Shown piece after piece: positions 7,465-33,904 of a stretch of DNA of 41,374 nt. This DNA is from a virus (lineage: Duplodnaviria > Caudoviricetes): positions 1-41,374 of IMG/VR virus record IMGVR_UViG_3300046772_000048. One strand, 5' to 3'. Each line of letters starts with the position of its first letter. Within the stretch, counting starts at the first letter, position 1. The notes under the pieces are model-generated. The model saw nothing but the letters and a program-made list of their open reading frames with translations. It was not told the origin of the DNA and did not search any database. Made by a program: the position numbers and the translations under genes.

Positions 7465-7564
7465 TAAAAACTAAATAAGTGGCTTGTCCCGCCCTACGGT
7501 AAAAATAATTTATAAAATAATCCCGTAGGGGGGCCAAGTCCGTAAAGGGAAGCAAAAAGTAAAA

Positions 7565-8482
7565 ATGACCGACGACTTGGCACCAACTACAAACAACGAA
7601 GAAGAAGGCAGCGGCCTTCCAGACATCACAACACCTGTTGACCTTCGGCCTGACTTAACCGAGTTTGGTATTATTGAATATGACCGCGGCGTCTGCGAGG
7701 ACACCTTTGAGAACCGTCAGATACTCAGAGCCGCCAACTTCACCTGGGATTACGTCTACGACCAACTAGGACACTCAACGGGTCTCATCTCGGCTCGCTC
7801 CAAGGAACAACTCCGCGAGCGCCGGCTTGTCAATTTTTCAGAACGTCGTCCGCTGCTAACGGACCCAACTAATAACAACTCAGACTTCTTAACGGGCCTG
7901 GACCTCATCATTGACCGTGATGCTTGCAAAATCACCCCACCGTGGGTAGTTGCTGCCACCCGTGCCTACCTTGAGGAACAGGAACAAGGCGGGCCAAAAT
8001 CTGAACGGCGAGCACCTAAAGGTCTACCACATCGCTGCAAGACTGTCAAGTCTGACGGCTTGCGTTGTTTGATGTGGGCATCTGGTCGTCTCAAGGATGA
8101 CGGCTTGTGTCGCTACCATCTTAAGTTCAACCGTCGCCCTGGAGGAGACATTGAACGGGCACGTCAGAAAATTGTTCAGTCAGCCCCCTATGCTGTGGAT
8201 AAACTAGAAGAACTTCTTGATGCTCAGTCAGAGCCAGTCCAACTCAAAGCCGCTACCGAAATCCTTGACCGTGCCGGCGTGCGAGGTGGGATTGAACTTA
8301 ACGTTGAGGTTGAGAGTAACGGCCCGTCCCCACACGAGGTCATCGCTGCAAGAATGGAACAACTTAGGATTGCTGCGCTGCACGCCATCGCAGATGCAAG
8401 CCCAGAAACAAAAATCATAGATGCAGAACCGATAGTTGAAGTTTCAACTAACGGCGAGCCCGAGGAGGCTGAAGACCGTTGA
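7565..8482 (+). CDS. Probable terminase small subunit-like protein
   Basis: C-x9-C-x13-C-x2-H cluster then AVDKLEELLDAQSEPVQLKAATEILDRAG helical motif resembling many phage TerS proteins. Confidence 0.5.
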   Translation: MTDDLAPTTNNEEEGSGLPDITTPVDLRPDLTEFGIIEYDRGVCEDTFENRQILRAANFTWDYVYDQLGHSTGLISARSKEQLRERRLVNFSERRPLLTDPTNNNSDFLTGLDLIIDRDACKITPPWVVAATRAYLEEQEQGGPKSERRAPKGLPHRCKTVKSDGLRCLMWASGRLKDDGLCRYHLKFNRRPGGDIERARQKIVQSAPYAVDKLEELLDAQSEPVQLKAATEILDRAGVRGGIELNVEVESNGPSPHEVIAARMEQLRIAALHAIADASPETKIIDAEPIVEVSTNGEPEEAEDR

Positions 8483-8652
8483 CTACAAACAATTTCCTAG
8501 AGTTGCTCCAGGAACATGCTGACCGCTGCATCGCAGACATTCCAGAGGCAACAGACCGGCAAGCGCATATCCGCTCAACGGCTCGCGCTAACGAAGCACA
8601 GAACTTACTTGAACTTTACAAACTAGACCGTGCTGATGCACAGTCTAGTTAG
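8479..8652 (+). CDS. Hypothetical protein, 57 aa (not in ORF track)
   Basis: GAGGAGG RBS, TTG start overlapping previous stop, MTTNNFLELLQEHADRCIAD... Confidence 0.65.
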   Translation: MTTNNFLELLQEHADRCIADIPEATDRQAHIRSTARANEAQNLLELYKLDRADAQSS

Positions 8653-8743
8653 TAAAAAGTAAAAAGTCAAATCAAGGCTAACCGCAAGGCCGGCGTGCGC
8701 TTAGCCAAAAAGTAAAAAGCGGCGAGAGATTAGGAGCAGGTAT

Positions 8744-8902
8744 ATGGATATGGAGCAGGTATTAACCGATTGCTTCTGGTGTGGGACGCTGTATGAGAAA
8801 GCCGCGTATAACCGTTGCCCAGGTTGTTCAACTACAGTAGAGATGGGTGTTATTAACATAACCGATGCTCCAACCGCTGAGCACCAGGTTACTGACCAGT
8901 AA
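8744..8902 (+). CDS. Small zinc-ribbon protein, 52 aa (not in ORF track)
   Basis: AGGAG RBS; CFWC...CPGC. Confidence 0.65.
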   Translation: MDMEQVLTDCFWCGTLYEKAAYNRCPGCSTTVEMGVINITDAPTAEHQVTDQ

Positions 8903-8904
8903 CT
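8887..8904. promoter_or_regulatory. Palindromic operator-like site GTTACT-N4-AGTAAC
   Basis: GGTTACTGACCAGTAACT; 17/18 identical inverted copy at 33471-33488, partial copies at 18835 and 18995. Confidence 0.5.
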
Positions 8905-9185
8905 AAAGTTGTTCGCATCTGCTTGCAGCCAGATGGTAACAAATGATACTTTTAGTAAACCGTTAGTTGTAAAGATGTATTCGTCTAGCCAGGACTAACT
9001 GGCACACAAGGACTAATGGGACGCATCGGGCCAGGTAACGAGGAAACAACAGTTAATGATGTTGTTCGTAGTTGCAGGGCCGCCACTGAAACCTCCGCCT
9101 CCACCACCACCATCTCCACCTGATAGGCAAAAAGTAAAAACACAGATGTCTGCATCTGGGAGGAGCCACCACTGCAAGATGTCCA

Positions 9186-9313
9186 TGAATTGTTTGTAGT
9201 TGCAACCAGGCGGCCGGTCTTCTGAGCGGCGAGCGTGTGGATTTGACTTAAAGGTTTTCTATCACTAGACTCCGCTTTGCGGCTCCGCCGCAAAGTCAAC
9301 TACAAACAATTCA
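9186..9313. repeat. Perfect 17-bp inverted repeat
   Basis: TGAATTGTTTGTAGTTG (9186-9202) and CAACTACAAACAATTCA (9297-9313). Confidence 0.85.
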
Positions 9314-9375
9314 ACAACTTGCAACAGCGGCCAGGCAGCAGCGGCGAGCGCTTACTACATAACGGCGTGCCCCTA

Positions 9376-9404
9376 TTGACATAACGGCTTGTGCTGCGTA
9401 TAGT
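9376..9404 (+). promoter_or_regulatory. Sigma70/SigA-type promoter (leaderless transcript)
   Basis: TTGACA-17-TATAGT, ATG 7 nt downstream. Confidence 0.8.
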
Positions 9405-9411
9405 GCTCTTT

Positions 9412-9567
9412 ATGTTAGAAGCATTGATTGCAAAAGTCCTACTGGACATTGACCGTAGCCAACGAGACTACGAAGTAAATATGAACCGTGCCCAAAGAAG
9501 TGCTGACTTCTGGAATGAAGTTACTTATTTCTTTTGGGACAAGATAACGGGAAGGAGGAACCGATGA
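9412..9567 (+). CDS. Hypothetical protein, 51 aa, leaderless (not in ORF track)
   Basis: MLEALIAKVLLDIDRSQR...; begins at predicted transcription start. Confidence 0.65.
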   Translation: MLEALIAKVLLDIDRSQRDYEVNMNRAQRSADFWNEVTYFFWDKITGRRNR

Positions 9568-9659
9568 CTGGTCTAAACAAATACATCTGGCGAGCGCTCT
9601 TTGCATTAGCGGCAAGAGAAGAAAAGAAGCAAGCAAAGCGCTTACAAAAAGTAAAATAA
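9564..9659 (+). CDS. Small basic peptide, 31 aa (not in ORF track)
   Basis: AGGAGG RBS, ATGA overlap, MTGLNKYIWRALFALAAREEKK... Confidence 0.55.
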   Translation: MTGLNKYIWRALFALAAREEKKQAKRLQKVK

Positions 9660-9676
9660 AAATAACGGCCTGTCTA

Positions 9677-9706
9677 TTGACAGCGGCGTGCGCTAACCGT
9701 TACTGT
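9677..9706 (+). promoter_or_regulatory. Probable promoter
   Basis: TTGACA-18-TACTGT. Confidence 0.5.
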
Positions 9707-9756
9707 TTTTATTAACCGCTAAAAAGTAAAAGCGGCGAGAGATAGAGAGACGAATA

Positions 9757-10218
9757 ATGCAGACGTTCCTGCCATACCCAGATTTCCGTGAAACCGCTAG
9801 TGTGCTGGACTACCGCAGACTAGGTAAGCAACGGGTGGAAGCATTTCAAATACTTAGAGCCATGAACGGTGAGACACGAGGATGGAGGAACCATCCTGCC
9901 ACGCTAATGTGGAACGGACACGAAACCGCACTCTGCCTGTATGCCATTGCGATATGTGATGAGTGGATTGCCCGTGGATATAAAGACACGATGAGACCGA
10001 GGTTCGTTGATGTCCTGGAGGGCCTGGCCCTGCAACAACAAACAACTTATCCATCTTGGCTTGGCGGCGAAGATTTCCATAAGTCCCATCAGTCAAACTT
10101 GATTCGTAAATTTCCAGAACACTACCAACACCTATGGCCTGATGTTCCAAACAACTTGGAGTATGTCTGGCCGACACCAGAACCAAGAGTTGACAATTTG
10201 ATTCTCGTGGGTGTATAG
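9757..10218 (+). CDS. MSMEG_6728 family / pyrimidine-dimer DNA glycosylase-like protein
   Basis: MQTFLPY, LDYRRLGKQRVEA.Q, GWRNHPA..MW, SHQSNL.RK, Y.WP. Confidence 0.85.
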   Translation: MQTFLPYPDFRETASVLDYRRLGKQRVEAFQILRAMNGETRGWRNHPATLMWNGHETALCLYAIAICDEWIARGYKDTMRPRFVDVLEGLALQQQTTYPSWLGGEDFHKSHQSNLIRKFPEHYQHLWPDVPNNLEYVWPTPEPRVDNLILVGV

Positions 10219-10219
10219 T
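10190..10219 (+). promoter_or_regulatory. Promoter embedded in 3' end of upstream CDS
   Basis: TTGACA-18-TATAGT. Confidence 0.7.
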
Positions 10220-10247
10220 CTGCTTATCTTCAGAGGAAGGAGATAAA

Positions 10248-10421
10248 GTGGATACAGCGAAAGTATCGCAAGTCCCTAACTGCGATTTCTGCGGCAACCC
10301 TGCGGAATATGACGCACAAACAAAAATGGGTCCTTGGGCATATATGTGCGACTCGGACTATGAAACACACTCTACTGGCAGACTAGGTCTAGGCTTTGGT
10401 CAGAAGTTGGTGGTGGCGTAA
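10248..10421 (+). CDS. Small Cys-containing phage protein, 57 aa (not in ORF track)
   Basis: AGAGGAAGGAG RBS, GTG start; CDFC..YDAQTKMGPWAYMC..LGLGFGQKL. Confidence 0.8.
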   Translation: MDTAKVSQVPNCDFCGNPAEYDAQTKMGPWAYMCDSDYETHSTGRLGLGFGQKLVVA

Positions 10422-10648
10422 TGGCTAACTACACAACAGTCAGAGAACTCATTGATAATCTTCTCAAGGAAGAAGATTTGGATTCTCCAGTAATTTATCA
10501 ATACTACTTAGGAGAACATTTTGATGTATCAGATAAAGTATTTGCTGAAGTAGCAAAGGAATTTGATTCTATGATTCCTTCTCTTTCAGATGCCTATGAC
10601 GCAATTGCACAGGCAGTAGCGGAAAAGGATGACTCTGATGGGATTTGA
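10421..10648 (+). CDS. Hypothetical acidic protein
   Basis: TAATG overlap with previous gene. Confidence 0.75.
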   Translation: MANYTTVRELIDNLLKEEDLDSPVIYQYYLGEHFDVSDKVFAEVAKEFDSMIPSLSDAYDAIAQAVAEKDDSDGI

Positions 10649-10937
10649 TTTAGTAAGAGAACGATTAGTTGATGCTAAAGCAATTGCTTGGGACGATTGT
10701 CATAAGATTTATTTGTTGATGGATGATGAACAAGTAGAACTGATGCGTGAGTATCGCTACGACACACTCATCACAAAAGAAGAAAAAACACCCGAAGAAA
10801 TGTTTGACCTCTTACAAGAGTGGTTTGATGATTCCTGCGGTCTTAGATTTATTCAAGCAGTAAGCACTAACTACGAAGACCCTAACGAGGGTTTTGAGTC
10901 GCTCATCGGACAATTTGAGTACGAGGAGGCTATGTAA
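10638..10937 (+). CDS. Hypothetical acidic protein
   Basis: AKAIAWDDCHKIYLLMD...SCGLRFI; ATG 10638 follows AAAGGA. Confidence 0.75.
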   Translation: MGFDLVRERLVDAKAIAWDDCHKIYLLMDDEQVELMREYRYDTLITKEEKTPEEMFDLLQEWFDDSCGLRFIQAVSTNYEDPNEGFESLIGQFEYEEAM

Positions 10938-11194
10938 TGACTACAGCAGAGAAAGGCATAGATGTCAGAGTTATTGAAGATTCGGGATGGAAGTCAATCC
11001 ACCAAACCCGCGAAATCTCGGTTGAGCATAGTGGAAACACATACAACTACCGAAGATGGGTTCGGATTCCAACACACAAATACGAGGACTATGACATTGG
11101 AGATGAATGGGGTAAGGATTACCAACACATTGACAACAAAGATGTCCCGCAAGAAGTTATCCAATTTGTAAATGATTTCTTTGAGGAGAACTGA
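10937..11194 (+). CDS. Hypothetical protein
   Basis: GAGGAGG RBS, TAATG overlap. Confidence 0.75.
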   Translation: MTTAEKGIDVRVIEDSGWKSIHQTREISVEHSGNTYNYRRWVRIPTHKYEDYDIGDEWGKDYQHIDNKDVPQEVIQFVNDFFEEN

Positions 11195-11385: not shown

Positions 11386-11389
11386 ACAG

Positions 11390-11788: not shown

Positions 11789-11805
11789 CCTTTCTCTAAG
11801 ACGCG

Positions 11806-11840: not shown

Positions 11841-12051
11841 GCTGTACGCACATAACGGCACGCCCTTACCTATAACGGGAGGAGAGTTCGCCGCGGGCAC
11901 GAGAACCGCAAGTTATTTGGATGTCGCCCTGCAAGGCGTACCCACCAAAAAGTAAAAATGAAAACTGGCGAGCGCAAAGTGTGTGTAGCCAAAAAGTAAA
12001 AACGCAGATGTCGTAACGGGTGCTGTCGTAGATGCGTAAGTTGTTCGTAAC

Positions 12052-12080: not shown

Positions 12081-12086
12081 GGTGCT

Positions 12087-12233
12087 ATGAAAAAAGTAAA
12101 ACCACTTGACGGCTTGCTTCGCTTGCGAGGTCGCTTTGTGCTGAACCAAAAAGCACAAGTGTTTGCCGACAAGAGGAGTAAGCGAAATAAAACTCGCGCC
12201 GAACAAAAACGGCGTGCCTTAGAGGAGGAGTAA
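12087..12233 (+). CDS. Small basic protein, 48 aa, leaderless (not in ORF track)
   Basis: MKKVKPLDGLLRLRGRFVLNQKAQVFADKRSKRNKTRAEQKRRALEEE. Confidence 0.75.
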   Translation: MKKVKPLDGLLRLRGRFVLNQKAQVFADKRSKRNKTRAEQKRRALEEE

Positions 12234-12242
12234 AAAGTAAAA

Positions 12243-12554: not shown

Positions 12555-13226
12555 ATGCCAAACTGGGTATTCAACTCACTCTCAATAGAGGGTGATGAAG
12601 AACAAATCAAAAAAGTAAAAGCACAACTCAATGCGCCATACGAGCGTAGGTTTGAGAGCAAAGAAGAAGTAACTAAATACTCAAACCCAATCTTTTCGTT
12701 CTGGAACATTGTCCGACCACCTGCCGACAAAATAGAAGAGTATGAAGGCGTACACGGATACGCTGATGGTGAGCGACAAGGTGATGGTGAGTTCAACTGG
12801 TATAACTTCAATAATCGTGAGTGGGGAACTAAATGGGATGTGGCAATCTCTGACGATAACAAGTTTCCTGAAACAACAATGACAGATGGCGAAACTTTAG
12901 TTACATACAATTTCCAAACTGCGTGGTCTCCACCTGTTGAAGCCATTGAAAAACTTTCGGAACAACACCCTGAACTAACAATAACTTTAGATTGGGAAGA
13001 AGAACAAGGTTTCGGTGGTGTCTATGTTTTCCAAGAAGGCTCGCACTATGTTGATAAAGAGTGGGACATACCTAACTCTCACGAAGACTATGTTGAGCGA
13101 GACAATGTAGATGGTTGTGTCTGCTCATACGAAGAAGACACAGATGAGTGGTATGACGATTGCCCCGGCAAAAAATTAGTTATTGAACTCTCTGCCATAA
13201 AAGATGTTGAAGTTGCTAAAAACTAA
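12555..13226 (+). CDS. DUF1281 / YubB ferredoxin-like domain protein
   Basis: MPNW..N.L, WY..N...WGTKW, F.TAWSPP. Confidence 0.8.
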   Translation: MPNWVFNSLSIEGDEEQIKKVKAQLNAPYERRFESKEEVTKYSNPIFSFWNIVRPPADKIEEYEGVHGYADGERQGDGEFNWYNFNNREWGTKWDVAISDDNKFPETTMTDGETLVTYNFQTAWSPPVEAIEKLSEQHPELTITLDWEEEQGFGGVYVFQEGSHYVDKEWDIPNSHEDYVERDNVDGCVCSYEEDTDEWYDDCPGKKLVIELSAIKDVEVAKN

Positions 13227-13415: not shown

Positions 13416-13433
13416 CGAAAGGAAAAAGTAAAA

Positions 13434-14296: not shown

Positions 14297-15358
14297 ATGG
14301 ATACAGTAAATGTGAAAGAGCGATACAACGCTCTAACACCCAACGCTTCTCCTACTCTATGGGAAATCATTGAGCAGGTTTCAGCGTCAGGTATAAACGA
14401 AAAAGCAAGTAAGGAACTTGCTTCCAAAGTTCTTCCAACAGGTCGTTATGTTGAAAGAGCAGTTGGCGCAGAACGCGCCCCACGCGGTTCTAGGGTGAGA
14501 AAGGATTTGCCAATGGTAGAAGCAATCGTTGGTGGTGCTGACACTTACAAGCGACCAAATGGTTCTATGTATCACGCTCGCCTATGGGGAGAGCATAAAG
14601 ATGTAGAAGTTCTCAAACTTGCTTACGAAACTACAAAGAGAAGTTTCGCAGGTGAAGAAGTAAATCCAATGTTTCCACTTCTCTATGGTGCGCCAGGTAC
14701 AGGAAAAACTGCGCTAGTAGAAGCAACTTTCGGAGACAACATTGAAACCTTGATTGGACACGGAGACATTGAAGCCTCTGACCTAATTGGTTCTTATGTC
14801 CAAACTCCAAGTGGAAACTTTGAGTGGGTTGATGGTGGATTACTTCGCGCTATGGAAGAAGGTAAAACTTATTTCGTAGATGAGATTGGTCTTATTGACC
14901 CTAAGGTTCTAGCAATTCTTTATGGTGCTATGGACGGACGCAGAGAAGTTGTTGTCTCTACAAATCCTGAACGCGGAGTAGTAAAGGCACACGCCAACTT
15001 CTTCGTAGTGGCTGCGACAAATCCTAACGCTCCCGGAGTTCGTCTCTCGGAAGCATTACTTTCTCGCTTCACAGTTCAAGCAGAAATGACTACTGACTAC
15101 GCACTCGCAAAGAAGTTGGGTGTTCCAAGTTTGCTAATCACTTCAGCACAAAATCTTTATCGCAAGCAACTTGCGAACGAAGTTTCTTGGTCGCCACAAA
15201 TGCGAGAACTCCTTGCGTTCCGCGACATAGCAACAACTTTCGGAACAAAGTTTGCGTTACAGAACTTGATTTCTTCCGCACCTGAAAGCGACAGAGCGAG
15301 TATCTCTGATGTTCTCTCTCGCGCCTTCGGTGAGGAAGTCAAACCTGCGAAAATCTAA
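14297..15358 (+). CDS. MoxR/CbbQ/NorQ-type AAA+ ATPase
   Basis: Walker A GAPGTGKT, Walker B YFVDE, AATNP, ALLSRF arginine finger. Confidence 0.9.
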   Translation: MDTVNVKERYNALTPNASPTLWEIIEQVSASGINEKASKELASKVLPTGRYVERAVGAERAPRGSRVRKDLPMVEAIVGGADTYKRPNGSMYHARLWGEHKDVEVLKLAYETTKRSFAGEEVNPMFPLLYGAPGTGKTALVEATFGDNIETLIGHGDIEASDLIGSYVQTPSGNFEWVDGGLLRAMEEGKTYFVDEIGLIDPKVLAILYGAMDGRREVVVSTNPERGVVKAHANFFVVAATNPNAPGVRLSEALLSRFTVQAEMTTDYALAKKLGVPSLLITSAQNLYRKQLANEVSWSPQMRELLAFRDIATTFGTKFALQNLISSAPESDRASISDVLSRAFGEEVKPAKI

Positions 15359-15380
15359 CCCCCTTAGATACGCAGGTTCG

Positions 15381-15412
15381 GGGGGTGGGTTGAGTGTCCT
15401 TCTCCCACCCCC
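15381..15412 (+). other. Hairpin with anti-RBS loop
   Basis: GGGGGTGGG/CCCACCCCC stem, loop TTGAGTGTCCTTCT. Confidence 0.65.
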
Positions 15413-15493
15413 TTCCCCCAACTTGACAAAAGGACATAAAAATGGAATACTATGGGTATTGGTGGATTGGAAGCCACTAATAGAAAAGGGAAA

Positions 15494-17284
15494 ATGATGG
15501 AACATTTAGTAAGTGGTGAGACTAAGTTTGAGGCTACTCCTAGAGAGTGGCTGAAAGTTGGTAGAGAAGTAGCAACGCTCACAAACAGATTAGCGTTGCG
15601 TGATGACATTATTGCGTATGTAGGAAATGGCGCAGGTGGCGAAGCCCCTGCTCGCTTCAATCCTGCGCTCGCAGAAGTTGAAGTAAATGTAAATAAAGTT
15701 TTTGGTGAAGGTGTAAATCCTGATTTCGTAGGAGACATAACACTTCGCAAAACACAATACGAGTATCCAATGGCAACAGGTGCGATTTCGCACGAAGCCT
15801 TCCACGCTCGCTTCTCATTATGGTCTATGCCAAATGCTCACGCAGAGTTGAAGAAAGATGAGTATGAGGCTCTAGTGTTGTTAGAAGAAGGTCGCATTGA
15901 GTATCAAGGCGTTCAATCAAACTTTCGTTCTCGCGTATTCCTACGCTCTAGTGCGTTGGAGTTAGCGATTGGAGACGCAAGAGAAGCATTTGATAAGAAG
16001 CAACCAACACAAGCAATCGCACACTTGATTGGTCTGGTACACGCTCGCGTTATCGCAGGTGTGTTAGATGAAGATGAAGTAGCAGACATTTATGAGTGGG
16101 TTCAAGAACAGATTGGTTTAGAAAATGTAGAAGCCTTCTGCGACATTATTCGTCCTTTCCAAACTCACGCAAACCACAAAGACGCAACAGAACTTTATCC
16201 ACTAGCAAAAGCGTGGGCAGAGTTAGTTCGTAAGATTATGAACGAACGCGGTGAGCAGGAAAATCCTGAAGGTGGTTGCGGTATGCCTCTACCAAAAGAG
16301 ATGGTTGAGGAAATCCTTGAGAAGATGAGTGAAGCAGGTGTCGCAGTTGAAATCGCTAACTATGGTGATTTAGCAGACCAAGAGCAGGGCGAAGATTACA
16401 AAGAACAAGCAGAAGCAAAACACAACGAAGCCAAAGAACAGGCAGAGAACAAAGAAGTTGCGAGCAAAGTCTTTGACAAATCAACAGGTCCCGGAACAAC
16501 TAAGACACTTAGCAGATTAGTTGAGCAGAGAGAAGCAACTCCACAAGAGCGTTCTGCTTCGGTAATTATTTCTCGCTTACTTGAAAAAGCAAAGTATCGT
16601 GAGCGAGATGAAATGATTATTGCGAGCGCAACTCCTCCGGGAAAACTTCGCACGAAAGCGATTATTCAGAATAAGGCACTCCGCGCTCGCGGTGTGTATA
16701 AGGCAGAAAATCCTTTCCGCAAAACAGTTCGCAAGCACACAGACGAACCAACACTTACAGTTGGAATTATGTGCGACATTTCAGGTTCAATGGGTTCTGC
16801 TATGAAGCCAATGGCGACAACTGCGTGGGTTATGAGTGAAGCAACTCGGCGCATACAAGGTAAGTGCGCTATGGTCTATTACGGAAATGATGTGTTCCCA
16901 ACACTAAAGGTTGGACAGAAACTAGAACAGGTAAGTGTTTATACTGCTAGTGATGGAACTGAAAAGTTCTACAAAGCATTTCAAGCAATAGATGGCGCAC
17001 TCAATCTACTTCACGGAAATGGTGCGAGATTGTTAGTTATTGTTTCTGATGGAGAATACACTTCAGATGAAACACGATTAGCAAAAGAGATTATCAAGAA
17101 GTGCGAAAAAGCAGGTGTTGGCGTTCTATGGTTGCCATTTGATAGTGGCTTCAGAGCGCGAGAACTTGGACAAGGTTATGCGAAAGTTGTTTCAGAGATT
17201 ACTGACCCTGTTCAAGCAAGCGAAGTTATTGGTCGCTCTGCTATGGAAGTAATGACGAGAGTTGGACAGAGGGCAGTTGCCTAA
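15494..17284 (+). CDS. VWA-domain protein (CobT-like) with N-terminal HExxH motif
   Basis: HEAFH, EEGRIE, acidic linker, MIDAS DISGS, VSDG; start moved to ATG 15494 behind AGAAAAGGG. Confidence 0.85.
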   Translation: MMEHLVSGETKFEATPREWLKVGREVATLTNRLALRDDIIAYVGNGAGGEAPARFNPALAEVEVNVNKVFGEGVNPDFVGDITLRKTQYEYPMATGAISHEAFHARFSLWSMPNAHAELKKDEYEALVLLEEGRIEYQGVQSNFRSRVFLRSSALELAIGDAREAFDKKQPTQAIAHLIGLVHARVIAGVLDEDEVADIYEWVQEQIGLENVEAFCDIIRPFQTHANHKDATELYPLAKAWAELVRKIMNERGEQENPEGGCGMPLPKEMVEEILEKMSEAGVAVEIANYGDLADQEQGEDYKEQAEAKHNEAKEQAENKEVASKVFDKSTGPGTTKTLSRLVEQREATPQERSASVIISRLLEKAKYRERDEMIIASATPPGKLRTKAIIQNKALRARGVYKAENPFRKTVRKHTDEPTLTVGIMCDISGSMGSAMKPMATTAWVMSEATRRIQGKCAMVYYGNDVFPTLKVGQKLEQVSVYTASDGTEKFYKAFQAIDGALNLLHGNGARLLVIVSDGEYTSDETRLAKEIIKKCEKAGVGVLWLPFDSGFRARELGQGYAKVVSEITDPVQASEVIGRSAMEVMTRVGQRAVA

Positions 17285-17382: not shown

Positions 17383-17407
17383 ATCTAAAAAGTAAAAGGG
17401 GAAACAA

Positions 17408-17863: not shown

Positions 17864-17893
17864 AAAGAAAAGAGAGGAAGGGAAAAAGTAAAA

Positions 17894-18406: not shown

Positions 18407-18430
18407 CGGCAAGGAAAGGAAAAAGTAAAA

Positions 18431-18595: not shown

Positions 18596-18616
18596 GAGAG
18601 GAAGCAAAAAGTAAAA

Positions 18617-18847
18617 ATGAAAGTCCAAGATTTACTAGAGCAGTTGAAAGCATACGAACCTGAAACCGAACTCATTGTCGCTTATTGGGATAAAGAGACG
18701 ATTGAAAGTTATGGTGCGCCAACTATGAACGAAGACCAATGGCAACAAGTTGTGGAAGATTACGAAGACGGAGAGTGGCATTGGCAAGGTTCTGCCGGTG
18801 ATGACTTCGTTGAAATCGCAGAGAAAGTGATTGCTACTGATGAGTAA
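18617..18847 (+). CDS. Hypothetical acidic protein
   Basis: MKVQDLLEQLKAYEP; 11-mer directly before ATG. Confidence 0.75.
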   Translation: MKVQDLLEQLKAYEPETELIVAYWDKETIESYGAPTMNEDQWQQVVEDYEDGEWHWQGSAGDDFVEIAEKVIATDE

Positions 18848-19662: not shown

Positions 19663-20061
19663 ATGGAAAAAAGAAGACCAATTAGTTTTTCTAAACTTGA
19701 TAAGGTAGTAAGAACAGGCTTACACCAATACGAACCTATCGCAACTGATAACAACACAACTGAAGATGGCGAAATCCTAATTACCAAAGCAACTCGCTGG
19801 ATACCAATGTGTGAGTTAGCAAAAAGTAAAAAAGATAGAGACAGGGGTCTTGTTCTTTTTGTTTGGGAGATAGACGCCATACGAGAAGCCATTGAGAACT
19901 TCTATGAAAAAGATGTTGCTCAACAATTTATGAAGTCTAAGGATTGCCACGAGTGTTTGGCTCTATGTTTCAGGGAACACCTAGAGATGTTAGATGTTAT
20001 GCCCTTGCGGGAGTTGTTCCCATCTGAAGAAGATGACGACACGGAAGAAGACACGATTTGA
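19663..20061 (+). CDS. Hypothetical protein
   Basis: GAAAAGGA RBS; 132 aa. Confidence 0.75.
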   Translation: MEKRRPISFSKLDKVVRTGLHQYEPIATDNNTTEDGEILITKATRWIPMCELAKSKKDRDRGLVLFVWEIDAIREAIENFYEKDVAQQFMKSKDCHECLALCFREHLEMLDVMPLRELFPSEEDDDTEEDTI

Positions 20062-21739: not shown

Positions 21740-21751
21740 GGAAAAAGTAAA

Positions 21752-21985
21752 ATGGACGAGATAAATCTTTCACGAACAGTAATGTTTGTTGGTAATTACT
21801 TTACCCTTATGACCACAGTTGTTCTTGATGAAACACTACGACAAGAAGACGAGAGTGATGAAGACTTTGCGGTGAGAACTGCGAGTGTCTTTATGAAGGA
21901 ATACTATGGCTTTGATGTTGCGTCTTTCTCTAACGACATTGGTGTAGTAGATGAAGATGGAGATGATGATGAAGACTATGAGTAA
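21752..21985 (+). CDS. Hypothetical acidic protein
   Basis: AAGG plus 11-mer before ATG. Confidence 0.75.
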   Translation: MDEINLSRTVMFVGNYFTLMTTVVLDETLRQEDESDEDFAVRTASVFMKEYYGFDVASFSNDIGVVDEDGDDDEDYE

Positions 21986-22748: not shown

Positions 22749-22780
22749 GCAAAAAGTAAAAACCGACAGGGAGCAGTACG

Positions 22781-23353: not shown

Positions 23354-23447
23354 CAAAAAGTAAAAACTCTCCGGCACGCAACAAGCCGGTCCTCTGCAAG
23401 TCAAAAAGTTATTCTGAAGTCGCTATGCGTACGCCTATTTGCTGAAC

Positions 23448-23901: not shown

Positions 23902-23957
23902 GTTTTTACTTTTTGGCACCGGGCTCAGGACCCGGCTGTTGAAAGAACGAACAACTT
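23902..23957. repeat. 56-bp composite spacer element, second copy at 29104-29159
   Basis: GTTTTTACTTTTTGG-N15-CCGGCTGTTG-N7-GAACAACTT identical in blocks and spacing. Confidence 0.8.
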
Positions 23958-24869: not shown

Positions 24870-24968
24870 GTTGTTCGCAGATTCCGGAGGTACCCCTGAC
24901 CAAAAAGTAAAAACTCTCGTTTTGCGGTCTGAAGGATTTGGCGGTGCTGGACATAAAAATAACTTTGC

Positions 24969-25754: not shown

Positions 25755-25881
25755 GTGGGAGGTGGCTTACCAAAAAGTAAAAATCACCAAATGCCGGCTC
25801 CAGATAAAAACAACTTAAAATTGTTTGTAGTGAGCAAAAACCTTAGCAAAAAATGTGTAAAGACAATTCGGACATTTTGCC

Positions 25882-26202: not shown

Positions 26203-26364
26203 ATGAAGTATTTACCAGATAGCGCAGTAGTCGGAACATACAAGCGTATGCGCCGTAAGCCTAAGGCTACCTATAAGTCAAGGGCGCAGTATCAGAGGGA
26301 AGCAGACCTCTGGAACGCAATTGCCTATGCGGTATTAGGATTTGCTAAAAAGAAACAAAACTGA
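26203..26364 (+). CDS. Small basic protein, 53 aa, leaderless (not in ORF track)
   Basis: MKYLPDSAVVGTYKRMRR...; paralog at 32168-32332. Confidence 0.8.
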   Translation: MKYLPDSAVVGTYKRMRRKPKATYKSRAQYQREADLWNAIAYAVLGFAKKKQN

Positions 26365-26376: not shown

Positions 26377-26922
26377 ATGGAGGAAAAAATGACGACAAAG
26401 ACACAATGGACAGAAGTAGATGAAGACGACTTAGGTATTGCTCCGCAATACGAAGCGATTGCTTACCCAACAGATTTGTGGAACGAAATCTTGCCAAACC
26501 TTTTTCAAGGTGGAACAGATGACGAAGACACAATTTGGGAGCGCAAGCGTGAAGAACCACAGATTACTAAAGACTTCTTTGATACAGTAATTACTGCCTA
26601 CCAATACGCAAACCCTGCGGATTGGCTAGTAAAAGAAATTCGCTATCCGTTTTACGATAGCCCAAGTATGAGTGGTATTGACTTCAAGGAGTTATTCCAA
26701 ATTGTGCGGATTGCTCACGAAGATTGGAAGTCAGGTAAGCGAGTTCTTATTCGTTGCCAAGCAGGACTAAATCGTTCAGGGCTAGTTATGGCATTAGTGC
26801 TAATGCGAGAAGGTTATTCTGCGGAAGAAGCGATTTGCCTAATCCGAGATAAGCGAAGCCAATACGCACTATTCAACTCAACCTTTGAGAAGTGGTTGCT
26901 CTCGCTCCCTAAGGCGGAGTAA
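26377..26922 (+). CDS. Dual-specificity / Cys-based protein phosphatase family protein
   Basis: EILPNLFQGG, VLIRCQAGLNRSG (CX5R), AI.LIR.KR; true start may be ATG 26389. Confidence 0.88.
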   Translation: MEEKMTTKTQWTEVDEDDLGIAPQYEAIAYPTDLWNEILPNLFQGGTDDEDTIWERKREEPQITKDFFDTVITAYQYANPADWLVKEIRYPFYDSPSMSGIDFKELFQIVRIAHEDWKSGKRVLIRCQAGLNRSGLVMALVLMREGYSAEEAICLIRDKRSQYALFNSTFEKWLLSLPKAE

Positions 26923-27125
26923 TGGAAGCAACCACTTGCTCCAAGTGCGACGCAGACGCAAAGTGGATAGATTGCCCTTGCGGTGATGAGATGTGCTTTG
27001 CGGTGCGTTGCTATTGGAGTGAGTGCGCCTATGTAGAGTGGGGTTGCGAGGAAGAAGGGGCTAACCAAAAAGTAAAAGACCAGCCCATCTATCTCTCTAC
27101 TTGCGACACGCCGAAAGTCAGGTAA
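26922..27125 (+). CDS. Small Cys-rich protein
   Basis: CSKC, CPC, several further Cys; TAATG overlap. Confidence 0.65.
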   Translation: MEATTCSKCDADAKWIDCPCGDEMCFAVRCYWSECAYVEWGCEEEGANQKVKDQPIYLSTCDTPKVR

Positions 27126-27395: not shown

Positions 27396-27580
27396 TGAAT
27401 AAAGGAAAGTTTGGGCAAGACCTTGCCAAGATTTCAGATAACGAGTTTGCGGAGTTCTTATTGAAGTTCGCATACATGACGCCAGAACAAATGGAAGAAC
27501 GAGACAACTTACCAACAAAAGAAGCGCGGAGGGAGTTTATGAGAAATCTTCCGCTTCCAGCACTAGGAGGGAAAAAGTAA
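27395..27580 (+). CDS. Hypothetical protein
   Basis: GAAGGGG RBS, TAATG overlap. Confidence 0.7.
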   Translation: MNKGKFGQDLAKISDNEFAEFLLKFAYMTPEQMEERDNLPTKEARREFMRNLPLPALGGKK

Positions 27581-27582
27581 AA

Positions 27583-28394: not shown

Positions 28395-28603
28395 GGGTGA
28401 GTTCAACAAAAAGTAAAAGAATTGCCGATGACGCCTCCCGTCTCTATGCGGAAGGGTTATCTATTGAGAGTGTGGCTAGCGAACTAAAGGTTTCGTATCG
28501 TTGCGCTCGCAAAGCAATTAGAAGTCGCGGGACACCTCTCCGCGACCCATCAGCCCGCGTCAAAGGACGCACAAGCCCAAAAAGGAAGAAGTCAGCCCAA
28601 TGA
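28391..28603 (+). CDS. Helix-turn-helix DNA-binding protein
   Basis: LYAEGLSIESVASELKVSYRCARKAI..RG..LR. Confidence 0.75.
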   Translation: MRVSSTKSKRIADDASRLYAEGLSIESVASELKVSYRCARKAIRSRGTPLRDPSARVKGRTSPKRKKSAQ

Positions 28604-29091: not shown

Positions 29092-29176
29092 CTTGCGCTC
29101 GCAGTTTTTACTTTTTGGTATCCAATCCTCCAGCCGGCTGTTGGACATCAGAACAACTTTCCTTTGCGTGTCTGGT

Positions 29177-29690: not shown

Positions 29691-29696
29691 GACACG

Positions 29697-30506: not shown

Positions 30507-30979
30507 TTATGAACAACGATGATGTAGTAGTCCCAGAACCTCACTCATACTACGAACCTGTAGTTGAGCCAGTTGCGGTGGAGTCCATCGTAGTTGAGCC
30601 AGAAGTTGAGCCAGCCATCTTCACAACACCAGAAGTTGTTGAGGAGTTGCCGGTTCCTGCGGCTGAAGAAAAGCCAGCAAAAAGTAAAAAGGTTGCAGAT
30701 GCAGCGCCAAGTTCTTTTGCAGATGACGAAGTTGTTTTGTTGTCTAGCCTGAAGTTTCAAGCAATTTCCCGAAACTCTCGTTCTGTTTATTTAGTTCAAG
30801 AAAGACTTTATCAACTTGGATTTGATGGTGGATACGAAGACCAGCCGGGTTGGTTGAGCGAAGGAACACGCAGAGCGCTCGCACAATTCTGCCCTTGCGA
30901 TGAAACATCTGTGCGGGTTGATGACGCGGAACTTATCAAGCGTCTGTTCGCAGGAACATCAGTAAAGGTTTCTGAATAA
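30503..30979 (+). CDS. Protein with Glu/Pro/Val-rich N-terminus and peptidoglycan-binding-like domain
   Basis: SVYLVQERLYQLGF...G.....T..AL..F resembles PG_binding_1. Confidence 0.6.
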   Translation: MIMNNDDVVVPEPHSYYEPVVEPVAVESIVVEPEVEPAIFTTPEVVEELPVPAAEEKPAKSKKVADAAPSSFADDEVVLLSSLKFQAISRNSRSVYLVQERLYQLGFDGGYEDQPGWLSEGTRRALAQFCPCDETSVRVDDAELIKRLFAGTSVKVSE

Positions 30980-30993
30980 CTTTTATAAAAATC

Positions 30994-31104
30994 AACGCTC
31001 CGGCTGTCAAGTAATCTTGATAAGCCGGGGCGTTAGGTTTTTGGAAGGACAGCATCTTGGCAGTACAGCAGAAAGCCCCTCTAAGAAATTAGGGGGGCTT
31101 TTCT
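30994..31104. terminator. Two hairpins at the convergence of the two gene arms, the second bidirectional
   Basis: AACGCTCCGGCT.../...AGCCGGGGCGTT and GAAAGCCCCTCTAA-gaaa-TTAGGGGGGCTTTTC. Confidence 0.8.
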
Positions 31105-31109
31105 GTTTG

Positions 31110-31463
31110 CTACGCTACTAGGCAGTAACTCCTGCGTGTGCGGTCATAATCAACGTGAACCCACGAATAAACCCAGCCTCGTTCTCTGTTATACACCTCT
31201 GTTCCTTCCAGCCACAATCCACACTTAGAACACTCGCCTCTAAACTCTGAACCTCCTACGCGGAGTTTTGGTTCAGGACGATGAGTTGTTTGTAAGTTGC
31301 TTGCTGCCAGGGGAGTTTTTACTTTTTGGTCAGCACTCTCCTCCACCTGTGTTTTGGGTGTGCTAATTATTTCTTTGAGGTGGCACTTTCCACATAAGGT
31401 TTCAGTTCCCTGAAACTTTGGGTTATACCAATCTCCACATTGAGAACACGCTCTTGGCTTCAT
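31110..31463 (-). CDS. Cys-rich hypothetical protein
   Basis: CSQC, CGKC, CSKC motifs. Confidence 0.7.
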   Translation of the reverse strand: MKPRACSQCGDWYNPKFQGTETLCGKCHLKEIISTPKTQVEESADQKVKTPLAASNLQTTHRPEPKLRVGGSEFRGECSKCGLWLEGTEVYNRERGWVYSWVHVDYDRTRRSYCLVA

Positions 31464-31467
31464 CTAG

Positions 31468-32103
31468 TTATCTGTTTTCCTTTTTGATAGTTTGGTATGA
31501 CTTGCTCTCGCCAGCACTATTGCGATAGCCATAGCGGACGAGCCTGAATTGAATAGCGGACGGAGTAACGCCTAGCAATTTTGCTAAACGATAAACTGTT
31601 ACGCCTTGCTCTGTTGCTTGGTTGAGTAGGTAGGAGTATTCCTCTGCCTCTGCCCTAAACTTTTTACTAGACGAACGAACCTGTTGAGCGAAAGGTTGAA
31701 GTTCCTTTAGCCGTGCCAGCAGTTCCTCGTTAGGCATTGTGTATTGAACCTGTGTCGGTATTGGATAACGCGGTGGTTCAGGTAGCACTAAGTCAGGTGA
31801 GATAGGCGTTGCGGTAGTTCCCTTCACGATTTGTCTAATTGTTTCTCGTGATAGTTCTAACGCTTTTCCAATACTCGCCTGTGTCCAGCCCTTTTTAGTG
31901 AGAGCGTGAATAAGACCATTTCTACCTTCTTGGTCTAGCGACTTTAGTAAGTCAGCCATCTCTAGAGGTAGCACTTGCCCTATCTTGTTGATTTCACCAG
32001 CAAGACGCGGGTTTGTTTTCACTCGCGGGTATCTGTTGATTTCCCTAGCGGAGTGCGCTTTCTTTAGTTGTTCAGGATTTGTCCTGAAGTTTATCTTTGT
32101 CAT
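31468..32103 (-). CDS. Double helix-turn-helix DNA-binding protein
   Basis: GWTQASIGKALELSRETIRQI and GVTVYRLAKLLGVTPSAIQFRL. Confidence 0.8.
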   Translation of the reverse strand: MTKINFRTNPEQLKKAHSAREINRYPRVKTNPRLAGEINKIGQVLPLEMADLLKSLDQEGRNGLIHALTKKGWTQASIGKALELSRETIRQIVKGTTATPISPDLVLPEPPRYPIPTQVQYTMPNEELLARLKELQPFAQQVRSSSKKFRAEAEEYSYLLNQATEQGVTVYRLAKLLGVTPSAIQFRLVRYGYRNSAGESKSYQTIKKENR

Positions 32104-32131
32104 TTTATCCTTTTATCCTTTCTTTGTCATA

Positions 32132-32160
32132 ACCTTAGACAAGGCAAGGGGATTTGTCAA
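32132..32160 (-). promoter_or_regulatory. Promoter
   Basis: TTGACA-17-TAAGGT on minus strand. Confidence 0.7.
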
Positions 32161-32167
32161 GTTGTTG

Positions 32168-32332
32168 TTATCGTCTGCGCTTAGGCTTTACGACATCAAC
32201 AACCGAGAACACGATAGCGTTCCAAAAGTCTGCTTGCTTTTGGTAATGCGCTCTGCTCTTAGCACTAGCCTTTCCTCTGCGGTGTAGTCGCTTGTAAGTT
32301 CCGACTATCGCACTATCAGGTAGTCCTTTCAT
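32168..32332 (-). CDS. Small basic protein, 54 aa (not in ORF track)
   Basis: MKGLPDSAIVGTYKRLHRR...; paralog of 26203-26364; GAAAGG RBS. Confidence 0.8.
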   Translation of the reverse strand: MKGLPDSAIVGTYKRLHRRGKASAKSRAHYQKQADFWNAIVFSVVDVVKPKRRR

Positions 32333-32363
32333 TTCCTTTTCCTTTCCCTATCTCTTATGCCTA

Positions 32364-32418
32364 ATACTATGACATACGAATACATTTGTCAAGCCGTAGG
32401 GGTGTGTTTTATAGCACA
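32364..32418 (-). promoter_or_regulatory. CRP-like box plus promoter
   Basis: TGTGCTATAAAACACA (32418-32403); TTGACA-17-TAGTAT (32392-32364). Confidence 0.75.
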
Positions 32419-32433
32419 TACTCTGCGGGCATA

Positions 32434-32460
32434 GAAAAGCCCCCCTTGCGGGGGGCTTCT
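32434..32460 (-). terminator. Intrinsic terminator (repeated unit)
   Basis: AAGCCCCCC-GCAA-GGGGGGCTTTT on minus strand. Confidence 0.9.
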
Positions 32461-32464
32461 CGCC

Positions 32465-32647
32465 TTAGAACGCTATGCCTGTCAAGTGGCGGTAGCACTT
32501 GTCCTCTAGGTTATACATTGAGAGTTTAGTGCCACACTCGCAGTAGCGAGCCTTCTTATTGACTTTTAGTGGTTGAACATTTGAGCCTTCAATCTTTAGA
32601 CCCATACCGAAGTCAAGTTCTAGGTCTTGTGTGATTGTGTCAAACAT
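32465..32647 (-). CDS. Small Cys/His protein
   Basis: CECGTKLSMYN...CYRH; AAAGGGGG RBS. Confidence 0.8.
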   Translation of the reverse strand: MFDTITQDLELDFGMGLKIEGSNVQPLKVNKKARYCECGTKLSMYNLEDKCYRHLTGIAF

Positions 32648-32689
32648 TTTGTTTCCCCCTTTGTTAGCACTCTTTGTGCTTGTGAGTAA

Positions 32690-32718
32690 ATACTATGCTA
32701 TGCGGGTAAGCGTGTCAA
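32690..32718 (-). promoter_or_regulatory. Promoter
   Basis: TTGACA-17-TAGTAT. Confidence 0.8.
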
Positions 32719-32754
32719 GTTGATTTCAGGTGATTTAGGTAACAATTTGATAAC

Positions 32755-32782
32755 AAAAAACCCCCCTTGCGGGGGGCTTCTT
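32755..32782 (-). terminator. Intrinsic terminator (repeated unit)
   Basis: AAGCCCCCC-GCAA-GGGGGGTTTTTT on minus strand. Confidence 0.9.
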
Positions 32783-32791
32783 GTGAGCCTC

Positions 32792-32941
32792 TTACCAGAA
32801 CTTAGACCATAATCTAATCGGCTTCTCTGCGACTTGTAGAGCCTTGACTACTACCAGCCCCACACTCTCTAGAGTGTCGCCAACCTTTTCCAAGATTTCC
32901 TGCTCACTCTTTGAGAAGTTTGCGGTTACCTTGATTTCCAT
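32792..32941 (-). CDS. Hypothetical protein, 49 aa (not in ORF track)
   Basis: AAAGGGGG RBS; MEIKVTANFSKSEQEILEKVGD... Confidence 0.75.
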   Translation of the reverse strand: MEIKVTANFSKSEQEILEKVGDTLESVGLVVVKALQVAEKPIRLWSKFW

Positions 32942-32988
32942 TTTTTCTTTCCCCCTTTGTTAGGTTTTTACTTTTTCCTAACACCTGA

Positions 32989-33016
32989 AGACTATCAAAC
33001 CTTTGCCGTGTGTCAA
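32989..33016 (-). promoter_or_regulatory. Promoter
   Basis: TTGACA-16-TAGTCT. Confidence 0.7.
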
Positions 33017-33053
33017 GTTATTTTTAGTAGATGACCAGTCATACTTTGGCAAC

Positions 33054-33080
33054 AAAAAAGCCCCCTTGCGGGGGCTTCTC
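33054..33080 (-). terminator. Intrinsic terminator (repeated unit)
   Basis: AAGCCCCC-GCAA-GGGGGCTTTTTT on minus strand. Confidence 0.9.
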
Positions 33081-33091
33081 TGCGAAGTCTT

Positions 33092-33328
33092 TTAGGCTAG
33101 TGATAGAGCCTCTCGTGGGTGGTTGAGAACAATCCCCAAGATTTCCTCTGCGCTTAGCATACGGGTTTCTGTGCCGTAGGCTTCCTCTGTAACGATAACG
33201 CTTGTGATAGGTGCGGTAGTGCCTAGAAGTAACTCTCGCACTCTTTCCTTGTAATCAACTACGAAACTGTAATTTGTCTCGTAAGACTTTCCCTCATCAA
33301 CTGTAATCATTACTCCGTATTGTGCCAT
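33092..33328 (-). CDS. Hypothetical protein
   Basis: AGAAAGGG RBS, own promoter and terminator. Confidence 0.8.
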   Translation of the reverse strand: MAQYGVMITVDEGKSYETNYSFVVDYKERVRELLLGTTAPITSVIVTEEAYGTETRMLSAEEILGIVLNHPREALSLA

Positions 33329-33373
33329 TTGTTTTTCCCTTTCTTTATTACTACACCTTGTAGTAATGAAGTA

Positions 33374-33439
33374 ATAGTAGGATACCTTCCCAGCGTTGTC
33401 AAGTCATAACACATAAGATTGTTTGTTAGTTATCTCACA
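33374..33439 (-). promoter_or_regulatory. CRP-like box plus promoter
   Basis: TGTGAGATAACTAACA (33439-33424); TTGACA-17-TACTAT (33402-33374). Confidence 0.75.
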
Positions 33440-33470
33440 CAACTTGTCAGCCTTGTCAGCCAGCCTAGTA

Positions 33471-33488
33471 AGTTACTCGTCAGTAACC
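33471..33488. promoter_or_regulatory. Palindromic operator-like site GTTACT-N4-AGTAAC
   Basis: AGTTACTCGTCAGTAACC, inverted near-copy of 8887-8904. Confidence 0.5.
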
Positions 33489-33904
33489 TAGCCAGCCTGA
33501 CACATAGCCAGCCTAAGACCTAACCATCTCCTAACCCTTGACTAGAACTTTAGACAATGACAAGAGCAACCAAGATGTCTAGTAGAACTAGAAACAAACA
33601 ACAAAAAACATTTTTATTTGACCAGACAATGACCTTTGTTGATTGACATTTATAAACCAGACATCAAAAAGTAAAACTTGAGCCAACCCAACTCAACTTT
33701 ATGTCAGAAACTTTCAACCAGAAACAATTTAGGCAAGGCACTAAAACATTTTCCGGAAACGATTTAGGCAAAGGCTCAAACCAAGCAGAGCCGTCTCACA
33801 GGCCAAAACCAAAAAACGTAAACCTTCATATATTTTACAAATCGTCCATTCTCTTTGGTCCTTTAGTCTTAGACGCCTCAATCAAATTGCTGTAGAATAG
33901 AGCA

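Follow-up and report, generated by a model that had tools for sequence, protein, structure and literature searches.

The window analysed here is the whole 41,374-nt stretch of IMG/VR record IMGVR_UViG_3300046772_000048, a tailed-phage fragment that encodes a ribonucleotide reductase, a portal protein, an AAA+/VWA pair, an HslV-like peptidase and many small genes without assignment. The fragment is part of an uncultured freshwater actinobacterial phage of about 125-135 kb. Its portal is 74% identical to that of DSL-LC01 (129 kb, from a lake metagenome) and more distant to those of actinobacterial phages, and megablast of 13-25 kb against cultured phages returned no match. Our subject is an asymmetric 11-mer, AAAAAGTAAAA, of which the window holds 32 exact copies, 28 on the plus strand and four on the minus strand (23904, 29106, 31317 and 32966). 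No copy lies before 7554, 31 lie between 7554 and 33676, and a single one lies at 40395. What is new here is that the region so marked coincides with a predicted terminal repeat of the phage.

Dinucleotide shuffles of the window (n=100) contained 0.11 copies on average and never more than 1, and AAAAAGTAAAA ranks top among the window's words at each length from 9 to 11. Tolerating one mismatch adds just seven copies (39 in total, compared with 3.64 in shuffles); one-mismatch variants being so few, the word is strict. Its flanking consensus, drawn from 185 distinct contexts in 13 sequences, is about W-A-G-C before the 11-mer and A after it and goes no further, with information at background level beyond 5 nt upstream and 1 nt downstream. 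A previous sequence-only reading of this DNA had reported the 32 copies, their regional confinement and a chance expectation of well under one, and every exact position was reproduced. The in-gene copies also stand far above the codon-preserving null that it had named.

Positions relative to genes were scored on a gene list made by hand, in which a script flagged five start positions as wrong, none of them in a gene with an in-gene site. All eight copies previously placed at start codons do abut one. The first (7554-7564) stands before the ATG of a terminase small subunit (TerS)-like gene, 51 bp inside the predicted left end of the repeat; those at 17883-17893, 18420-18430 and 18606-18616 abut ATG 17894, 18431 and 18617, and 13423-13433 abuts GTG 13434. 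Two overlap a stop codon as well (12232-12242, before ATG 12243, and 27572-27582, before ATG 27583), and 21742-21752 sits between a stop codon and ATG 21752, with which it shares its final A. Five further copies precede a start codon by 10-26 nt, among them 8707-8717 (26 nt), 9721-9731 (25 nt before ATG 9757), 17387-17397 (10 nt before ATG 17408) and 22751-22761, which follows a stop codon and lies 19 nt before the HslV-like gene. The copies named here are all on the plus strand.

Seven copies lie fully in genes, in two frames and all in sense orientation, where 1,000 synonymous resamplings gave a mean of 0.21 and a maximum of 2. They are 12091-12101 (within the first codons of a small gene), 12610-12620 (inside coding sequence 12555-13226), 19821-19831 (inside 19663-20061), 27067-27077 (inside 26922-27125), 28408-28418 (in the first codons of a small helix-turn-helix (HTH) gene, at whose start the relative G003 has its own word), 30679-30689 (in a peptidoglycan-binding gene that also has a site in G002, G008 and, as its own word, G003), all on the plus strand, and 31317-31327 on the minus strand, sense within a leftward gene. 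The earlier count of nine copies in coding sequences would be reached by adding 9129-9139 (plus strand; non-coding or in a doubtful 47-codon open reading frame) and the copy at 40395; the two frames it reported were found, and together with the synonymous null they uphold its view that the word is not a protein motif.

The other copies are located at or after stop codons or in spacers. On the plus strand, 8654-8664 is directly 3' of a stop codon, 9646-9656 is non-coding, 11947-11957 and 11991-12001 share a spacer 3' of a terminator-like hairpin, and 23355-23365 is directly 3' of the stop codon of the HslV-like gene, about 95 bp before a -35 box. Terminator-promoter spacers carry the word in both orientations, as had been noted: 24902-24912 and 25772-25782 are forward (plus strand), and 23904-23914 and 29106-29116 are reversed (minus strand). 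A minus-strand copy (32966-32976) lies in the leader of a leftward gene, and the last site (33666-33676, plus strand) is about 120 bp inside the predicted right end. Every gene or leader copy of the window is on the sense strand, including those of the minus-strand arm, in agreement with the earlier claim. The stray copy (40395-40405, plus strand), outside the predicted repeat in a reading frame that begins to be open at 38069 and has not closed where the window stops, has two mismatches in the relative L001 and is probably there by chance.

Folding reproduced the hairpins at both copies said to form loops, 9721 and 32966 (z -2.35 and -3.58), and gave no significant hairpin around the word in four of the six contexts folded. 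Several simple origins can be set aside. Chance, composition or a protein motif are ruled out as the source of the copies by the shuffles, the synonymous null and the two frames, and an assembly artefact by identical sites in independently assembled relatives. The majority of copies lie away from starts, which rules out a role as ribosome-binding site only, and the distance to -35 boxes is not constant, which rules out an UP element or fixed-position operator. Finally, the coefficient of variation of the spacing (0.77-1.19 in eight genomes) rules out a regular ladder.

The sites are conserved in relatives. G001, which is 85% identical over the region, keeps 25 of the 29 alignable sites exact where 2.9 are expected; the flanks differ at 121 of 638 positions (19%), and control A/T-rich 11-mers are exact in 70 of 241 cases (29%). 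Ten of 12 sites are exact in L001, and eight of 12 in G002 at 74% identity. The spacer copies 23904, 24902 and 25772, located downstream of intrinsic terminators and the first of them reversed, are exact in both G001 and L001. The word is under purifying selection.

Confinement is equally clear in near-complete relatives, where copies keep to the same region and the density is, as claimed, not genome-wide. AAAAAGTAAAA occurs 26 times in G001 (125 kb), always between 6.2 and 31.8 kb, 25 times in G002 (123 kb) and 16 times in G008, and 0-2 times in G003-G007. At 11 TerS loci of the AAAAAGTAAAA type no copy lies upstream and 5-12 lie downstream. In nine genomes, 193 of 210 copies fall inside the predicted repeat, at 0.72-1.18 per kb compared with 0-0.07 outside; sister words were chosen from loci within the region, which makes the inside counts partly circular and leaves the outside counts free of this. 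The distance between the left end and the first copy is 12-60 bp in seven of the nine genomes, and that between the last copy and the right end is 71-122 bp in four of nine; the first tenth of the predicted repeat holds 22 of 152 copies.

It is very probable that this region is the phage's long direct terminal repeat (7503-33788, about 26.3 kb), the first-expressed region, a prediction for which homology to the ends of two cultured phages, contig depth and palindrome avoidance all speak. We took the repeats of A3Wally (MZ150783) and Pumpernickel (OK040790) from their GenBank records: genes 1-41 of A3Wally recur as genes 355-394 at an offset of 179,221, forming a repeat of 15,503 bp, and that of Pumpernickel is 19,963 bp long. 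Each of the two repeats starts some 62 nt upstream of gene 1, whose homolog in the window is the TerS-like gene (7565-8482, plus strand, 305 amino acids), which matches A3Wally gp1 at 31% and Pumpernickel gp302 at 34%. This gene has weak terminase-small-subunit matches (7JOQ profile, E 4.7e-4; phrog_2538, E 7.4e-4), and the best fold matches of its model (predicted template modelling score, pTM, 0.34) are unrelated helical bundles (Z 5.2), which neither confirm nor exclude a TerS. A conserved non-coding element at the right end (33751-33830, plus strand) is shared with A3Wally, Pumpernickel and all relatives checked. Both cultured records stop 12 nt before its GGCCAAA block, at about 33,788 in the window, with the A3Wally register in the alignment set by hand from two anchors. 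Because the start of gene 1 and the GGCCAAA element match two cultured records, we place the ends near 7,500 and 33,788. Sharing the same left-end gene and the same right-end element with these records argues, by homology, for fixed ends, and the element is likely the terminase cutting signal.

Contig depth was higher inside than outside the predicted repeat in five of five runs (ratios of 1.71, 1.79, 1.89, 1.43 and 1.54 in X1-X5, length-weighted over the longest listed contigs, the best 32 of 260 and 28 of 156 pieces), where depth is not the same as copy number, each contig has one depth so that sharp steps are invisible, and X1 may be the source sample. End-spanning contigs imply boundaries at 7.9-8.4 kb (three contigs) and at 33.7 kb (X1), but at 32.3 kb in X3; an X4 contig breaks at 33770/33782, with a drop in depth from 20.7 to 15.5, and X5 is intermediate at 8.3-10.6 kb. 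Furthermore, 4- and 6-letter palindromes are more strongly depleted inside than outside in seven of seven genomes, as expected of first-entering DNA.

Other features stand close to the predicted ends. A mostly non-coding kilobase after the TerS-like gene (8480-9750) holds the repeated words CGGCGTGC, ACTACAAAC and GGCGAGCGC. The G014 contig (L081, L093) begins and ends inside the TerS-like gene, near the predicted left end, with an overlap of several hundred bases. Inside the right end, 33400-33700 is a low-complexity, quasi-repeated non-coding tract, and like tracts of unrelated sequence are found in A3Wally, G022 and others.

We surveyed sister lineages at the TerS-like gene (best 80 of 289 loci) and at the small HTH gene (best 80 of 233) and found a set of lineage-specific words: AAAAAGTAAAA, GGGTAAAAA, AGGTAAAAAA, AGGGGAAAAA, GGATAAAAA, GGAAAAAAAT, TGAAATTTTTTA, TGTAAATTTTTTAGG and GTATTCRTTTTTTC, some of them in both orientations and all carrying an A/T tract. 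Three places that carry AAAAAGTAAAA in the window, namely the TerS start, the HTH start and the peptidoglycan-binding gene, carry in G003 the word of that lineage. Between G009 and G011, whose proteins are mostly 80-98% identical, GGGGTAAAAA has given way to AGGGGAAAAA at orthologous positions, with the gain of an upstream CTATRTATAA. In G011 (reverse, 1438-25129) CTATRTATAA-AGGGGAAAAA often forms an inverted pair around a TATRTA centre, which suggests a dimeric site in that lineage. In a TerS tree from a quick search, AAAAAGTAAAA forms one branch (12 rows, SH-aLRT 97) that sits within lineages of G-rich words; the labels were given by hand on the basis of 10-kb flanks, and co-evolution does not follow from a label that kin have in common. 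A dispersed word of this kind was not seen in G004, G005, G006, DSL-LC01 or A3Wally.

Other short sequences recur in these genomes. Around the TerS-like gene, AACTTC(C/T)AACGA is clustered in G004, G005 and L029. DSL-LC01 (L030) carries, at 20500-47062, about 16 near-identical promoter and ribosome-binding words, whose -10 box is flanked by GATTC/GAATC in an operator-like manner. A second spacer word of the window, AAGTT(G/A)TTY, often followed by GATGTC (11910, 12038, 23406, 23870, 23957, 24965, 25816 and 29159), flanks the spacer copies of AAAAAGTAAAA, sometimes as an inverted pair, and is 2-8 times denser inside the repeat in five genomes. CGACACG occurs upstream of several -35 boxes (13709, 23449, 24970 and 27105 in the window, also in the A3Wally repeat and in G006); it is similar to the GACAC motif of WhiA.

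We examined 22 sequences, in 19 of which a leftward promoter was identified. Of the 38 copies in the leftward arm, 37 have the flipped orientation, and the lone unflipped copy adjoins a locally rightward promoter. Five of the seven copies scored outside leftward transcription face forward. Orientation follows transcription, not genome direction. Polarity is just as strong in lineages with a T-rich word on the sense strand (13/14, 7/7, 7/8 and 13/14), so an A-rich sense bias is not the whole cause of the polarity. Consensus promoters of the sigma-70 type are concentrated in the same place, 24 of 28 in G001 and 25 of 29 in G002 lying within a 32-kb span around the sites. Offsets from word to promoter range from -241 to +116 among those within 250 bp, and a few copies lie within 50 bp of a -35 box.

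The reading that we prefer, which we hold to be quite possible though short of probable, is that AAAAAGTAAAA is a polar, stoperator-like DNA site at which a phage protein would block host RNA polymerase and shut off early promoters. The word would be read as double-stranded DNA by a phage-encoded protein and, once bound, this protein would act as a polar roadblock, as at the stoperators of L5. The roadblock would serve, probably, the lytic switch from early to later genes rather than lysogeny. Under this reading, a transcript would be halted wherever a copy stands in a gene or at a gene junction; forward copies beyond a terminator would block read-through, and reversed ones antisense read-through. 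We suppose that the word is read as DNA because conserved copies lie downstream of terminators and in reversed orientation, and that the reader is made by the phage because the word changes in concert, forms one TerS clade and shows no enrichment across the 121 genomes of candidate hosts. The sequence-only reading had proposed a binding site for a phage protein that silences, antiterminates or organises the whole early region; selection, confinement, polarity and the concerted change of the word support the binding site, and the coincidence with a predicted terminal repeat had been missed. Among its three options, silencing fits the anatomy best.

Candidates for the reader include tandem-HTH proteins of the phage, whose architecture is that with which the cluster A repressor reads its asymmetric site as a monomer (PMC9283540). 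The least excluded candidate is a family-wide tandem-HTH protein of 166 amino acids encoded directly outside the predicted right end (33905-34405, plus strand). All 14 rows with AAAAAGTAAAA have KSTVHFW in its first helix and all 34 remaining rows have KTT(I/V)H(F/C)W, a match between helix and word that may be ancestry alone; G014 has KSTIHFW. Its model (predicted local distance difference test, pLDDT, 77) has two HTH-like helical units, for which we found no PDB match at E 0.001, only uncharacterised entries in the viral library and only hypothetical or HTH clusters in the atlas; neither profile nor model matched the TipsytheTRex repressor. The two other HTH proteins once suggested as readers fare worse. 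The small one (28397-28603, plus strand, 68 amino acids; start earlier given as 28391), which in many lineages has a site in its own start, is rejected, having the same helix under different words. The tandem-HTH protein at 31468-32103 (minus strand, 211 amino acids), homologous to the gene that closes the A3Wally repeat, is unlikely, its first recognition helix varying under the same word and the protein being absent from G003, G009 and G016. A comparison of the G009 proteome with those of G010/G011, over part of the genome, singled out nothing.

Several observations weigh against a stoperator-like role. The distance to promoters is not fixed, several single-gene units have a site only after their terminator, and no site lies in three leftward genes or in the AAA+/VWA operon, over which the longest site-free gap (3,964 bp) extends until site 17387 closes it. 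With such units and no fixed promoter distance, simple repression promoter by promoter fails, and blocking of read-through or spreading must be assumed. Near-matches are also sense-biased (17:4 and 95:43), which weakens the argument from polarity for the A-rich word alone. The TerS-like gene, a late function, has a site abutting its start, and the cultured relatives A3Wally and DSL-LC01 do without a dispersed word. Finally, no candidate reader covaries cleanly with the word. Even the 33905 protein, the third HTH protein proposed earlier, remains ambiguous: its helix tracks the word in most rows, yet it is 98% identical between G009 and G010 despite their different words, and G036 shares its word with G018/G032 with a different helix.

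An array that spans the predicted repeat from end to end could instead serve the handling of that repeat, with TerS or another phage protein binding the sites to delimit or duplicate it at packaging or to shield first-entering DNA. This is rather unlikely in our view. The outermost copies hug the left end in most genomes and the right end in some, copies are plentiful in the first tenth of the repeat, and G004, which lacks a dispersed word, has a cluster of another word around the TerS-like gene. Candidate host chromosomes moreover hold hardly any copies of the word, which is what a self mark calls for, and the A/T tract is kept in all its versions. However, a packaging, entry or priming signal gives no reason for copies to flip with transcription, and on the same ground we disfavour a priming site for a primase-polymerase, which G001 encodes, or a translocase signal. 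The irregular spacing, the five of nine genomes without a copy near the right end and the long repeat of A3Wally without any such word also count against handling, and a TerS alignment inspected by eye had no residue tracking the word. Both functions might be joined in one protein: this family of lake actinophages would mark its whole 20-26 kb repeat with a private, fast-evolving word, through which the repeat would be silenced after take-over and also, with a view to entry or packaging, delimited or shielded. We regard this combination as a speculative and rather improbable one. If true, it would be an address code for long terminal repeats, and natural swaps such as that of GGGGTAAAAA to AGGGGAAAAA in close relatives would point to the reader. 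To our knowledge, how long terminal repeats are copied at packaging is unsettled.

The flipping with transcription is accommodated equally well at the RNA level, where an RNA-binding protein or nuclease would mark early mRNAs, for repression of their translation or for decay, or the site would load an antiterminator. All gene and leader copies are sense, eight stand between ribosome-binding site and start codon, and two are displayed in hairpin loops, but these loops account for two of the six folded contexts only. Many early transcripts have no copy, and conserved copies lie downstream of a terminator and before the next promoter, two of them reversed. In addition, G011 has inverted pairs as well as both orientations, and other lineages have both orientations or palindromes. 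We hold an RNA-level or antitermination role to be decidedly unlikely.

A reader supplied by the host, either a Chi-like stop for an end-resecting nuclease or a nucleoid protein such as Lsr2, is very improbable. Chi-like sites that guard DNA ends would be at home in a terminal repeat, A/T tracts lend themselves to minor-groove readers, and different hosts could account for different words. However, 121 genomes from the order to which the best-matching candidate host belongs did not have the skewed over-representation of a Chi-like site: AAAAAGTAAAA occurs 0-9 times per 1.2-2.2 Mb, similar to its reversed control, and GGGTAAAAA is likewise unenriched in five of five genomes. A strict 11-nt word with almost no one-mismatch variants is unlike the target of a shape reader, and the close phages G009 and G011 differ in word. 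Least probable of all is a recombination relic without a reader, in which the copies are crossover points of cassette shuffling kept alike by gene conversion: lake-run variants do change gene content beside sites (joints 18616-18840 and 27555-27568) and at many sites G011 has acquired some 10 additional letters upstream, but sites are kept while their immediate flanks diverge by 19-40%, information drops to background just outside the word, and in-gene copies persist at orthologous places.

Beyond the array, the window and its relatives have further features. The MoxR-type AAA+ ATPase and VWA pair (14297-17284) is kept in the relatives searched. Two paralogous genes for basic proteins of 53-54 amino acids, 26203-26364 (plus strand) and 32168-32332 (minus strand), each have their own strong promoter and lie in opposite arms of the repeat. 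Neither the window nor G001 contains GATC, TCGA or AGCT, and GATC is also missing from G002; G001 encodes two N6/N4 methylases. At 40213-40747, four of four runs have joints by which a part of the long open frame is left out or exchanged, marking a population-variable segment, and RNA runs X18-X20 contain part of the window stretch. Outside the window, G001 has genes for two WhiB proteins, more HTH proteins, methylases and a primase-polymerase. No integrase was found among the 85 window and 63 G001 proteins scanned (a subset of the open reading frames of G001); a resolvase N-terminal domain is present. The best matches of a DUF3039 protein of G001 (best 80 of 182, 54-68% identity) include many genomes titled Candidatus Planktophila/Nanopelagicaceae, and from the matches of this protein alone we infer a host of that kind. 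Cultivation on Candidatus Planktophila strains is reported in PMC10202952, whose two phages, of 39 kb, fall outside the size class of the present one.

A literature search, with supplements and most subscription papers outside its scope, returned no description of AAAAAGTAAAA or of a repeat-filling word in this phage group. The nearest relatives are A3Wally, Pumpernickel and DSL-LC01 (OQ999401), the last placed in a proposed family 'Nanparkviridae' in the main text of PMC10611076, which mentions neither 'terminal repeat' nor 'motif'. They share a homologous portal, the TerS-like gene 1, HTH genes, AAA+/VWA genes and the right-end element, and A3Wally and Pumpernickel have terminal repeats of 15.5 and 20.0 kb starting at gene 1. 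In contrast to the window, the A3Wally repeat and the matching region of DSL-LC01 have no dispersed A-tract word. Repeats of 10-12 kb were called the longest among actinobacteriophages in 2021 (PMC8612146); that predicted here, of about 26 kb (20-26 kb in relatives), exceeds this maximum.

A long direct repeat with small early genes and strong host-type promoters is also known in the first-step-transfer region of T5, in phiCbK and in phage K (10.1101/866236, PMC3556154, PMC11598898), where it appears as doubled coverage, the left end of phiCbK being likewise at a terminase gene. Unlike our array, the repeats and DnaA boxes of T5 cluster in the injection-stop region, and the same texts, as available, describe no dispersed repeat-wide word. 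The T1-like phages TLS, T1 and Rtp have about 20 oriented intergenic 21-nt repeats that end in TAAAA and have been likened to stoperators (PMC11447400, in its accessible portion). These differ from AAAAAGTAAAA in being bipartite 21-mers about 76 nt before starts, in pac-type enterobacterial phages, with no confinement to a terminal repeat described in that portion. Closer in form are the start-associated sequences (SAS) of cluster K mycobacteriophages and Microbacterium cluster EF and the motifs of clusters EC/EG/EI, strict asymmetric words near non-structural gene starts and mostly in one orientation, which the consulted sections of PMC3203893 and PMC7302621 give as 10-19 copies of unknown function. 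SAS contain the Shine-Dalgarno sequence and nearly all stand directly before starts, whereas here eight of 31 copies abut a start and five more lie within 26 nt; the A-rich AAAAAGTAAAA falls between a purine-rich Shine-Dalgarno sequence and the start, and sister G-rich words overlap the Shine-Dalgarno sequence when they precede a start.

The closest functional parallel may be the stoperators of cluster A mycobacteriophages (L5, TipsytheTRex), by analogy with which the array may work. By comparison with PMC9283540, both systems comprise more than 20 short asymmetric sites in short intergenic spaces, oriented with transcription, and candidate readers with two DNA-binding domains. Our sites differ from cluster A stoperators in sequence and length, are confined to the predicted repeat instead of being genome-wide, are not promoter-centred, and several follow terminators or are reversed; a repressor of that family was not found. 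About 30 strict sites, predicted ends nameable to the base and natural variants across dozens of genomes make the array a handle on early-gene shut-off in phages that infect what, given the inferred host, are probably the most abundant freshwater bacteria. For T5, the mechanism of early-gene switching is said to remain unknown in PMC7472727. If our preferred reading holds, stoperator-like control would extend from lysogeny, where cluster A phages use it, to a lytic early switch.

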